From the NCBI GenBank assembly GCA_027046625.1, contig JALTXX010000003.1, positions 10,378-74,377 of the forward strand: a stretch of DNA of 64,000 bases. Direction: 5' to 3'. Positions 4,467 through 28,700 of the stretch are shown piece after piece. Every line of letters starts with the position of its first letter. Position 1 is the stretch's first letter. Source of the stretch: Candidatus Micrarchaeota archaeon (lineage in GTDB: Archaea; Iainarchaeota; Iainarchaeia; JAADDC01). Position numbers and translations under genes: made by a program. A model generated the notes under the pieces. That model was not told the origin of the DNA and did not search any database. It worked only from the letters and a program-made list of their open reading frames with translations.

Positions 4467-5221
4467 AGGCACCGGAACAGAACGATTATGTGGTGGTAAA
4501 GGTAACGCGCATCATCCAGTACGGAGCGTATGTAGAGCTTGAAGAGTTTCCCGGCTGGACAGGGTTTATACATATATCTGAGGTAGCTCCTTACTGGGTA
4601 AAGAACATAAGAAGCCATGTTAGAGAGGGACAAACAAGGGTAGCCAAGGTATTGAAGGTATACCCAGACAAGAAGAGTACAGATCTTTCTCTGAAAAGAG
4701 TACCTCAAGCTATAGCCAAGAGAAAGATGGAAGAGCTTAGGAGATCAAAGAGGGGAAAGTTCCTTCTTGAGCTTGCCGCAAAGTCTATGGGGAGAGATCC
4801 TAAAGAGGTGGAAGAGGTATTGGAAAAGGAGTTTGGAGATGTGTTTGGAGCCTTTGAAAATGCAGCTCTCTATGGAAGGGAAGTATTAGAGAGTGTGGAT
4901 ATAGATGAGGAGTGGAAAAGGGCTATTGTAGAGATTGCAAACAAGTATATAGAGATTCCAAGGAAGAAAGTGATGAGAACCCTTGAAATAACAGTTCCTG
5001 GCCCCTATGGAGCCAAGGTAATAAGAGAATCTCTTCTATCTATTATTAAAGAGAGCAAGCCAAACACAGAGATAAGGGCATATGTGGCAGGTGTGCCAAG
5101 ATACACAGTTGAGGTAATTTCCCATGACTATAGAACGGCTGAGAAGGTAATAGATGAGATGGTGGAGCGTATAAGGGAGGGTGTGGAGAAGGAAAAGGGA
5201 AAAGTTGAGGTGGTAGAATGA
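4463..5221 (+). CDS. eif2a: Translation initiation factor 2 alpha subunit
   Basis: S1 domain GAYVELEEF...GFIHISEV...DLSLKRV. Start reassigned to ATG 4463 (GGAGG 7 nt upstream, ATGA overlap with rps27e). Confidence 0.95.
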
Positions 5222-5391
5222 GATTTCTTATGAGGAAGTGTGTAAAGTGCAAGATATACACATTCAAGGATAGGTGCCCCTCTTGTGGAGCGGAAACAGC
5301 ATCGGCCCATCCTCCGAGGTTTTCCCCTGAAGATAAGTATGGAAAGTATAGGAGACTTGCAAAAAAGAAATGGGGGTTGGTAGATGTTTGA
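5218..5391 (+). CDS. nop10: H/ACA RNP protein Nop10 (57 aa, not in ORF track)
   Basis: Manual translation: [57 protein letters not shown]. Confidence 0.95.
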
Positions 5392-12566: not shown

Positions 12567-12800
12567 GGGCAGCGGGCCGTAGGCCGCCTTCTGTATTGAG
12601 ACGGGATTAGACTTAGCGGGCATTCGCCCTTGCACCCAACCCGGACCGTTTCAACCACACCACACATCATGGGTAGGGGTACCTCATCCCTCCGTGTGGT
12701 GGGTGTCGTTTCTGTTCCCGGGAGTCCCTCACGGGACTTGTTTTTAGCGGGTGGGCGGACCTTCCTCAGGAGACCCCCGAGACCCGTCTGCCCGCTGCCC
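12567..12800 (-). ncRNA. rnpB: RNase P RNA, compact (234 nt), type-M-like
   Basis: P1 GGGCAGCGGGC/GCCCGCUGCCC, P2 AGACGGG/CCCGUCU, CR-I GAGGAAGGUCCGCC, ACAGAAAC, UUGAAAC, GGUGCAAG, CR-V ACAGAAGGCGGCCUA. GC-rich island. Confidence 0.93.
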
Positions 12801-26631: not shown

Positions 26632-26820
26632 CTATCCGCCAAGTTGGTTTAGCTGCTGATTTATCTCTTTTTGTAGTGTAGATGTAGTTTGTTGAATAGA
26701 TTGACCTGCTGTGGTGGCACCCTGCTGCCCTGCCTGGAGCAGACTGTTGGCCAATATTAGTACAACTATAATTACTCCACCCAGCAGCAACATGTACTCA
26801 AATGTACCCTGGCTTCTCAT
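26632..26820 (-). CDS. Type IV pilin, candidate major pilin (MRS/QGTFEY), 62 aa
   Basis: Start reassigned to ATG 26820 (GCGGTGAT SD, AT-rich promoter-like segment upstream). Q+1/E+5 class III motif. Confidence 0.85.
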   Translation of the reverse strand: MRSQGTFEYMLLLGGVIIVVLILANSLLQAGQQGATTAGQSIQQTTSTLQKEINQQLNQLGG

Positions 26821-26893: not shown

Positions 26894-26927
26894 TGACGCG
26901 GGCAGCCATTGGAGCGACCGGAGAACC
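26894..26927 (-). other. 3' strand of the pre-16S bulge-helix-bulge processing stem
   Basis: GGUUCUCCGGUC-GCUC-CAA-UGGCUGCCCGCGUCA pairs with the leader at 28526-28559. Confidence 0.9.
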
Positions 26928-26950
26928 TCCCTCTGGTTCTGACCTCCCAG

Positions 26951-28451
<1,501 letters not shown>

Positions 28452-28485
28452 TGGCCGCAAGGCCGGCGGGGTTCCGCCGTACCTT

Positions 28486-28524
28486 GCTTCATCGGTTTCC
28501 CTCTGAGTCAAGCCAGGTGGTCAT
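28486..28524 (-). ncRNA. C/D-like K-turn module in the 16S 5' leader with a 12-nt guide-like segment
   Basis: AUGACCA - CCUGGCUUGACU - CAGA - GG(GAAA)CC G - AUGAAGC. 10-nt complementarity to 16S at 27070-27079. Confidence 0.55.
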
Positions 28525-28525
28525 C

Positions 28526-28559
28526 GGTTCTCCGGCCTTTGCTCTGGCTGCCCGCGTCA
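28526..28559 (-). other. 5' strand of the pre-16S bulge-helix-bulge processing stem
   Basis: UGACGCGGGCAGCCA-GAGC-AAA-GGCCGGAGAACC. Gives a 15-bp stem, 3-nt bulge, 4-bp helix, 3-nt bulge and 12-bp stem. Confidence 0.9.
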
Positions 28560-28590
28560 GACCCGAGAAATATGAGCTCGGATCCCCATG

Positions 28591-28665
28591 GAATGTGGCC
28601 GCAACCGGATGGGGTAGTTCATCGTGGGGTTACCCCCTCTCCCACCCTAACGCCATGCGGCCAGC
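28591..28665 (-). ncRNA. Single-hairpin H/ACA guide RNA at the 5' end of the 16S leader
   Basis: Lower stem GGCCGCA/UGCGGCC, pocket UGGCGUU/AUCCGG, upper stem GGGUGG/CUACCC, K-turn-like apex, ACA box about 15 nt from the pocket top. Confidence 0.8.
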
Positions 28666-28683: not shown

Positions 28684-28700
28684 AGATTAAAAGGGTGACG
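28684..28700 (-). promoter_or_regulatory. Putative TATA element of the rRNA promoter
   Basis: TTTTAAT (28692-28686, minus strand), about 25 nt upstream of where the GC-rich leader begins (~28665). Confidence 0.4.

Follow-up and report, generated by a model that had tools for sequence, protein, structure and literature searches.

A predicted box H/ACA guide hairpin at the 5' end of a 16S rRNA leader in a DPANN-type archaeon, with its target in helix 31 of the same rRNA

Guides for the helix-31 uridine and guides carried in precursors

Nep1 from M. jannaschii methylates the helix-31 sequence GAU-Psi-CAACGCC only where the pseudouridine is present (PMC2853112), and in yeast the same site is processed in the order snR35, Nep1, Tsr3, an order given in an earlier note on the DNA studied here and in agreement with published work (PMC2853112, PMC11077068). 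In S. islandicus, the classic H/ACA RNA sR435 modifies 16S-U930, the equivalent of yeast U1191, in vitro (PMC11077068). The helix-31 residue 938 of P. abyssi, an archaeon with Nep1 present and Tsr3 absent, has been modelled as m1-pseudouridine (PMC7005279). Pab160/Pf9 was considered as a guide for this same site and rejected: its Psi922 is another position, because the helix-31 U of P. abyssi is residue 938 and S. islandicus 16S position 1009 corresponds to P. abyssi 1017 (PMC11077068). Table 1 of a Pyrococcus H/ACA study does not have 938 among its listed 16S target positions.

Archaeal H/ACA guides located in rRNA leaders have a single precedent in the literature found, a preprint on the Thermococcales. 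It describes the H/ACA RNA Tba19/Pab19, placed in the 5' ETS ~200 nt upstream of 16S in 34 of 34 Thermococcales genomes and predicted to modify helix 34 (U1002/U1017) of the same 16S; the reason for this placement is, according to its authors, not understood (10.64898/2026.03.23.713588). Two further systems are of interest for comparison, namely the 159-nt H/ACA sRNA of Nanoarchaeum equitans, reported as the only one found there (PMC3491384), and the C/D guide carried by the archaeal pre-tRNA-Trp intron (PMC2584109).

The hairpin considered here belongs to a DPANN-type archaeon with a reduced genome, assembled as 652 kb in 18 contigs and ~94% complete. The window, by which is meant the whole 64-kb stretch of DNA that was analysed, supplies all positions given below. 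Fold, conservation, covariation within the stems, covariation between guide and target, and the encoded machinery all agree with the proposal of the earlier note that the 16S leader opens with an H/ACA guide. Judged on sequence, the hairpin is very probably a functional single-hairpin archaeal box H/ACA guide that occupies the 16S pre-rRNA from its 5' end to nucleotide ~70 and targets U27516. The kind of RNA, a guide for the helix-31 site and a location in an rRNA leader are each already precedented, and the arrangement is rare. What appears to be new is a hairpin family that matches nothing in Rfam, the lineage in which it occurs, the placement in a leader of a guide for the Nep1 site, and the evidence drawn from comparison of relatives. 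Such a guide would provide a sequence-defined answer to the origin of the pseudouridine substrate of Nep1 in helix 31 of a 0.65-Mb DPANN-type archaeon, and would be a second, apparently independent, H/ACA guide built into a 16S leader.

The closest functional counterpart is sR435, which is likewise a single-hairpin archaeal H/ACA RNA with a K-turn, pocket, lower stem and ACA box, directed to the same 16S site with Nep1 acting afterwards. It is a promiscuous guide with 8 targets and weak pairing at U930, whereas the source hairpin has one strong rRNA target with 14 pairs. S. islandicus also encodes Tsr3, unlike the source lineage (0 of 61 genomes). The passages that describe sR435 are silent on any location in an rRNA leader (PMC11077068). 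Tba19/Pab19, encoded inside the 16S precursor as the source hairpin probably is too, shares with it a position ~200 nt upstream of 16S and a predicted target on the same 16S, but that target is helix 34 rather than helix 31, and the Thermococcales operon runs 16S-tRNA-23S, whereas the source 16S gene stands alone. Homology to Pab19 was not detected because no Rfam H/ACA family matches the source leader at E <= 10, and an independent origin of the two RNAs is likely.

Yeast snR35, like the source hairpin, guides the first step, from U to pseudouridine, at the homologous small-subunit site before Nep1/Emg1 acts; it differs in being a separately expressed, two-hairpin eukaryotic snoRNA that works in trans, within a pathway that continues via Tsr3 to m1acp3-pseudouridine. 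The human counterpart of snR35 is SNORA13/ACA13. The N. equitans sRNA resembles the source hairpin as a K-turn-bearing H/ACA guide in a very small archaeal genome, and is unlike it in having two hairpins, an intergenic position between protein genes, and a promoter and terminator of its own. The guide of the pre-tRNA-Trp intron is similarly embedded in the precursor of its target and removed at a bulge-helix-bulge, but it directs C/D methylation of a tRNA from within an intron, in contrast to an H/ACA guide with an rRNA target in a leader.

Anatomy of the hairpin and its predicted helix-31 target

The 16S rRNA gene occupies 26951-28451 on the minus strand (Rfam RF01959, 1456 bits), and the candidate box H/ACA guide hairpin, delimited by sequence, RNAfold, alignment and a covariance model termed R1 (81 bits, E = 2e-16), lies upstream of it at 28594-28662 on the same strand. 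Read 5' to 3' along the minus strand from 28662 to 28591, the sequence begins with the 5' strand of a 7-bp lower stem (GGCCGCA, 28662-28656), followed by the 5' guide strand UGGCGUU (28655-28649), a single A, and the 5' strand of the upper stem (GGGUGG, 28647-28642). The K-turn then opens with G28641 and A28640 and is capped by an apical stem (GAGGGG, 28639-28634, against CCCCAC, 28629-28624) closed by a GUAA loop (28633-28630). On its 3' side, the K-turn presents the bulge GAU (28623-28621), G28620 and A28619, and an extra unpaired A28618. The 3' strand of the upper stem (CUACCC, 28617-28612), a single C, the 3' guide strand AUCCGGU (28610-28604) and the 3' strand of the lower stem (UGCGGCC, 28603-28597) complete the hairpin, and the ACA box (28596-28594) follows directly 3' of the lower stem, with UUC next.

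The lower stem, the upper stem, ACA-UUC and both pocket pairings that the earlier note had described are thus all present in the sequence, and the hairpin folds as it had been drawn, RNAfold returning the three-helix architecture both as minimum free energy structure (-33.6 kcal/mol) and as centroid (-32.1 kcal/mol). The folding energy itself is unexceptional (z = -1.75; 11 of 200 shuffles equally stable). The K-turn that had been claimed is likewise there, but not with the 5-nt bulge first assigned to it: comparison with 9 relatives gives a canonical 3-nt bulge, GAU, and an apical stem of 6 bp in which an A.A mismatch occurs in the source genome only. The distance of 14-15 nt to the ACA box, counted from the pocket-closing pair, also stands, its exact value varying with the C of CCCC that is taken to close the upper stem; 13 nt lie between guide residue A28610 and the ACA.

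Archaeal H/ACA guides share a consensus lower stem of 7-9 bp and a spacing of 14-16 nt from the pocket-closing pair to the ACA, and between the pocket and the second G.A pair natural guides have 8-11 layers and productive ones 10 (PMC4652768). The anatomy of the predicted hairpin fits this consensus in its stem, its ACA, their spacing and a K-turn with tandem GA on both strands. Between pocket and K-turn lie 6 bp, two G.A pairs and 1-2 unpaired nucleotides, a stem that would fall within the natural range but may not have the 10 layers of productive guides. The K-turn is a putative L7Ae site, the motif of GA, 6-bp covarying apical stem, 3-nt bulge and GA being kept in 10 of 10 aligned hairpins. 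No Rfam H/ACA family, those from Pyrococcus and Pyrobaculum among them, matches the hairpin at its gathering score, and on the minus strand none does so at E <= 10. Matches on the plus strand, to a Drosophila scaRNA (20 bits) and to PyrR204 (14.5 bits), lie far under the gathering score and were set aside as noise.

A 9-nt direct repeat, UUGCGGCCA, is found on the minus strand at 28596-28604 and again at 28452-28460. The former copy consists of the 3' strand of the lower stem together with the first A of the ACA, and the latter adjoins the 5' end of 16S and is invariant among the aligned relatives; pairing of the lower-stem strand GGCCGCA is possible with either copy.

The predicted target lies in the loop of helix 31 (27508-27523, minus strand), where a pairing scan aligned the pocket with AUUGGAU-U-C-AACGCCA. 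The 5' guide UGGCGUU pairs with AACGCCA (27514-27508) at 7 of 7 positions and the 3' guide AUCCGG with UUGGAU (27522-27517) at 6 of 6, two of them G.U, with U28604-A27523 as a possible seventh pair that would bring the total to 7+7; U27516 and C27515 are left unpaired. The target U at window position 27516, which is 16S position 936 in the source organism, is the U that the earlier note had identified, a helix-31 loop residue at the P site that corresponds to E. coli 966 and yeast 1191 by the equivalences given in papers. The surrounding sequence, GAUUCAACGCC, matches exactly the substrate of M. jannaschii Nep1, the source 16S carrying the same 11 bases as GAU-Psi-CAACGCC (PMC2853112).

A scan of the rRNAs for an unpaired U-N flanked by both pocket strands, with a threshold of >= 9 pairs, passed U27516 as the only rRNA site. 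Extended to both strands of the 652-kb genome, it returned the 7+7 site at U27516 as the sole site of its kind, and ten sites with >= 11 pairs, none of them in rRNA sense apart from 16S U27516. That a chance match was unlikely, as the earlier note had argued, is supported by dinucleotide shuffles of 16S+23S, of which just 7 in 2000 reach 14 pairs anywhere. A structural descriptor that combined lower stem, ACA, 14-16 nt spacing, upper stem and K-turn had the hairpin as its sole match in the genome and a mean of 0.2 matches in 20 shuffled genomes, a result that shows motif rarity only, the descriptor having been composed with the hairpin already in view. A looser descriptor yielded 13 candidates, 12 of them AT-rich with <= 9 rRNA pairs, and thus no further canonical guide with an rRNA target in the genome.

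Conservation and covariation of guide and target

The hairpin stands upstream of 16S in all 8 genomes of the family whose assemblies include the 16S 5' end, and occurs at a contig end in a ninth. Three congeneric genomes match the leader from end to end, a second genus of the family matches it in part, and alignment of eight leaders places the hairpin in all eight. Public contigs with a 16S 5' end contributed the hairpin from two metagenome contigs (L040, and L042 with its 5' end cut); a third, L039, has the same 16S 5' end with an AT-rich, unrelated leader that lacks the hairpin, and seven matches among public genome contigs were repeats of loci already in the set.

Among the ten distinct hairpins that were aligned, the ACA and the 5' guide GGCGUU are invariant (10/10), as are UCC of the 3' guide and GA/AUGA of the K-turn. 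These sequences stem from two or three genera only, with an effective sequence number of 2.44. Under the specified structure, 87.6% of cells are paired, against 37-55% when partners are displaced by 1-3 columns; changes on both sides are seen at 10 of 19 pairs, and the covariation score is matched by none of 500 shuffles. The upper stem (helix 2) is the weak part, with 71.7% of cells paired and an irregular form in 4 of the 10 sequences, which belong to the second genus. Without a supplied structure, RNAalifold recovers the same three helices and adds two covarying pairs that extend the lower stem to 9 bp in relatives, as compared with 7 bp in the source genome.

Covariation extends to the target. 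The rRNA base immediately 5' of the target U varies among U, G and C in the compared genomes, with the following U-C-AACGCC constant, and in 7 of the 8 genomes for which both the guide and the helix-31 sequence are available, the homologous guide base, 13 nt before the ACA, pairs with it. The guide-rRNA pair is A-U in the source genome and L014, U.G in L010, G-C in L012, L013 and L015, and G.U in L040; the second genus by itself shows G-C as well as A-U. The L042 hairpin would have a U.C mismatch at this guide base, and a register shift of one base gives G-C with 4 contiguous pairs, leaving the predicted pairing of this guide with its target ambiguous. The contigs of G001 and G002 end before helix 31 and so fall outside the comparison; their guide base is U, and a G or A is therefore predicted at their 16S position 965. 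This concerted change of guide base and rRNA partner through four pair types supports the claim that the helix-31 U of the same 16S is the target of the guide.

The same data bear on the alternative that the hairpin has only a structural or protein-binding role in the leader, for instance as an L7Ae-bound K-turn or as a processing or antitermination signal, and that its complementarity to helix 31 is coincidental. The unexceptional fold energy, the many stems typical of GC-rich leaders, a descriptor match expected 0.2 times per genome by chance and the lack of a match to an Rfam family would all suit such an element. A coincidental complementarity, however, sits poorly with a 14-pair bipartite match seen in just 7 of 2000 rRNA shuffles, with an invariant ACA and 5' guide between covarying stems, and with a guide base that follows the rRNA base in 7 of 8 genomes through four pair types, and this explanation is accorded hardly any weight beside that of a modification guide.

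The phyletic distribution was followed with model R1, which matches 9 of the 14 family genomes at E <= 1e-13, the five without a match being exactly those without an assembled 16S 5' end. Outside the family, nothing better than E = 0.5 was found in the 47 other genomes of the order and class, no match in the sequences that flank 16S in 22 further members of the class, and none in 145 more genomes sampled from the phylum. Weak matches in G053 (E = 0.59), G041 (E = 0.98) and G006:C7 (E = 0.05), with many unpaired positions, were left uncounted, as was one in G002:C86 (E = 0.06).

Machinery, precursor and proposed pathway

The source genome encodes the proteins expected of an H/ACA system. Cbf5, for which the earlier note had asked that the genome be checked, scores 423 bits against a cut-off of 238, and Nop10 lies within the window itself, at 5218-5370 on the plus strand (PF04135, 91.5 bits; G000:C3:15595-15747 minus 10377). 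Gar1 and two L7Ae-family proteins also exceed their curated cut-offs. Nep1/Emg1, likewise anticipated, is present at 107.7 bits against a cut-off of 28.2. Tsr3, in contrast to the other two enzymes sought, was found in none of 61 genomes, the 94% complete source genome included, in a search whose control was positive in 4 named archaea. The m1acp3-pseudouridine that had been assumed at the target is consequently not sustained: no Tsr3 was found, and therefore m1-pseudouridine, not m1acp3-pseudouridine, is the expected end product.

Nep1 occurs in 14 of 14 family genomes and in 0 of 47 others of the order and class, and Nop10 in 13 of 14 and 3 of 47, the latter three being both genomes of the sister family and one genome of another family. 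Of the non-family 16S genes (loci L016-L037), 17 could be read at the position equivalent to E. coli 966, where 11 have A, 5 have U and 1 has G; Nep1 is absent from these genomes, and Nop10 from almost all of them. The distribution of genes and hairpin fits a pathway from guide through pseudouridine to Nep1 that was retained in the family, the co-occurrence of Nep1 and hairpin being one phylogenetic event and not many. The family has kept all of the H/ACA machinery and Nep1, where most sampled relatives are without Nop10 and Nep1, and often without the U.

The 16S gene stands alone because the 23S gene sits on another contig, the two being unlinked. From the start of the hairpin it is 211 nt to the 16S gene, and the target lies ~1.1 kb downstream of the hairpin. 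The gene upstream of the hairpin is divergent, across a gap of 73 nt in which a TATA-like box A, TTTTAAT (28686-28692, minus strand), is the likely 16S promoter on the grounds of its sequence and conserved spacing: it is centred ~26-27 nt upstream of the first base of the hairpin, G28662, and both genera have kept a box of the form YTTTTAAWC at a similar distance. The stretch from the ACA to the 16S gene holds neither an AT-rich box nor an oligo-T tract. From this arrangement we infer that the hairpin forms the 5' end of the 16S primary transcript and would be co-transcribed with 16S. Among public sequencing data, the sequence was located in DNA contigs of a single study and in no RNA run.

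Downstream of the hairpin, cofolding of leader and trailer reveals a 16S processing stem, formed by a leader strand at 28526-28558 and a trailer strand at 26895-26927 (both minus strand). On the leader side, helix A spans 28558-28545, helix B 28544-28541, a 3-nt bulge 28540-28538 and helix C 28537-28526; on the trailer side, helix A spans 26895-26908, a 3-nt bulge 26909-26911, helix B 26912-26915 and helix C 26916-26927. This is a canonical bulge-helix-bulge, comprising 14 bp, the trailer bulge of 3 nt, 4 bp, the leader bulge of 3 nt and 12 bp, and its layout recurs in 5 of the 5 relatives with enough trailer, where the sequence differs by compensatory changes. Both the H/ACA hairpin and a second leader hairpin of 9 bp (28559-28585, minus strand), found by cofolding and kept in sequence in 8 of 8 aligned leaders, are situated 5' of this stem.

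An RNA gene independent of 16S, with its own terminator and upstream of a separate 16S promoter, would place the hairpin outside the 16S precursor altogether, and has a model in the H/ACA RNA of N. equitans with its own promoter and terminator (PMC3491384). This organization is scarcely credible here, as it would need signals in an ACA-to-16S stretch that shows no oligo-T tract or AT-rich box and that is occupied instead by the conserved 5' strand of the processing stem, the only TATA-like boxes lying upstream of the hairpin in the 73-nt divergent gap.

As part of the precursor, the guide would assemble with L7Ae on its K-turn and with Cbf5-Nop10-Gar1 on its lower stem and ACA box. Both strands of its pocket would then pair with 16S 27523-27517 and 27514-27508 and offer U27516 to Cbf5 for conversion to pseudouridine, which Nep1 would next methylate at N1; with Tsr3 not being encoded, m1-pseudouridine would be the end product. 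Located 5' of the bulge-helix-bulge stem, the guide would stay tethered to its target until the cut by splicing endonuclease, after which it would leave with the leader, with leader-trailer ligation a possibility; ligation products of this kind have been proposed for other archaea (PMC10351888).

A different role for an H/ACA-type RNP at this position would be that of an snR30-like chaperone, which pairs with helix 31 to assist the nascent 16S 3' major domain and for which pseudouridylation is absent or incidental. The cis tether at the very start of the precursor, ahead of the processing stem, and the presence of more conserved K-turn-like motifs in the leader could both serve such a function, and non-modifying and bifunctional H/ACA snoRNPs exist in eukaryotes. 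It is nevertheless very improbable: the geometry is that of a catalytic guide, with an unpaired U-N, 14-15 nt to the ACA and a covarying base adjacent to the target; Nep1 requires pseudouridine here and co-occurs with the hairpin; and the loose descriptor gave no other canonical rRNA-targeting guide in the genome.

If the hairpin is taken as a pseudouridylation guide, a bolder proposal is that it serves as the only canonical H/ACA guide of the genome and as a stoichiometric self-guide in cis, acting co-transcriptionally and coupled to release at the bulge-helix-bulge; this is offered tentatively and is on balance doubtful. Should it be true, the restriction of hairpin and Nep1 alike to one family, and the existence of an unrelated leader guide in the Thermococcales, would point to a convergent and repeated capture of guides by rRNA leaders. 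With one hairpin and a target that lies 1.1 kb downstream on the same transcript and would pair with it over 14 bp, the locus would make a simple system for comparing guiding in cis and in trans.

Several minor features of the precursors and their surroundings deserve mention. The second leader hairpin (28559-28585) has a near-invariant stem sequence and is flanked in the second genus by AUGAGGA ... CUGA, reminiscent of the K-turn boxes of C/D RNAs; the source genus has AUGGGGA as its first box, and there the trailer is the pairing partner of the GA of CUGA. A K-turn-like GAUGA is possible atop helix C, between leader GAACC-GAU-GA-CC (28513-28531) and trailer GG-GA-GGUUC (26928-26932), and a K-turn-like hairpin, CUUGACUCAGAGG-GAAA-CCGAUGAAGCAAGG, lies at 28470-28500 (minus strand); both of these motifs are conserved in the aligned relatives. 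The 23S leader contains CUGA...GGGGAUGA. By their sequence, the K-turn-like motifs of the leaders may represent multiple L7Ae sites in the precursors.

The 23S gene itself (L062; G000:C11:18340-22052) spans 3713 nt as compared with a model of 2987 positions, probably because insertions or introns add ~0.7 kb to it, and carries a TTTAAAA box of its own, similar to the TTTTAAT box of the 16S leader. Elsewhere in the 64-kb window, ARAGORN detected no tRNA genes, and Rfam placed an RNase P RNA at 12568-12799 on the minus strand, a feature that sets the source organism apart from N. equitans, for which no detectable RNase P RNA is reported (PMC3491384). Immediately 3' of the 16S trailer, a small ORF (26632-26820, minus strand) has a start that reads MRSQGTFEYMLLLGGVIIVV, with a Shine-Dalgarno-like GGTGAT and a TTAATAAA box ahead of it, and its predicted N-terminus resembles the class III (type IV pilin-like) signal peptides of archaea.
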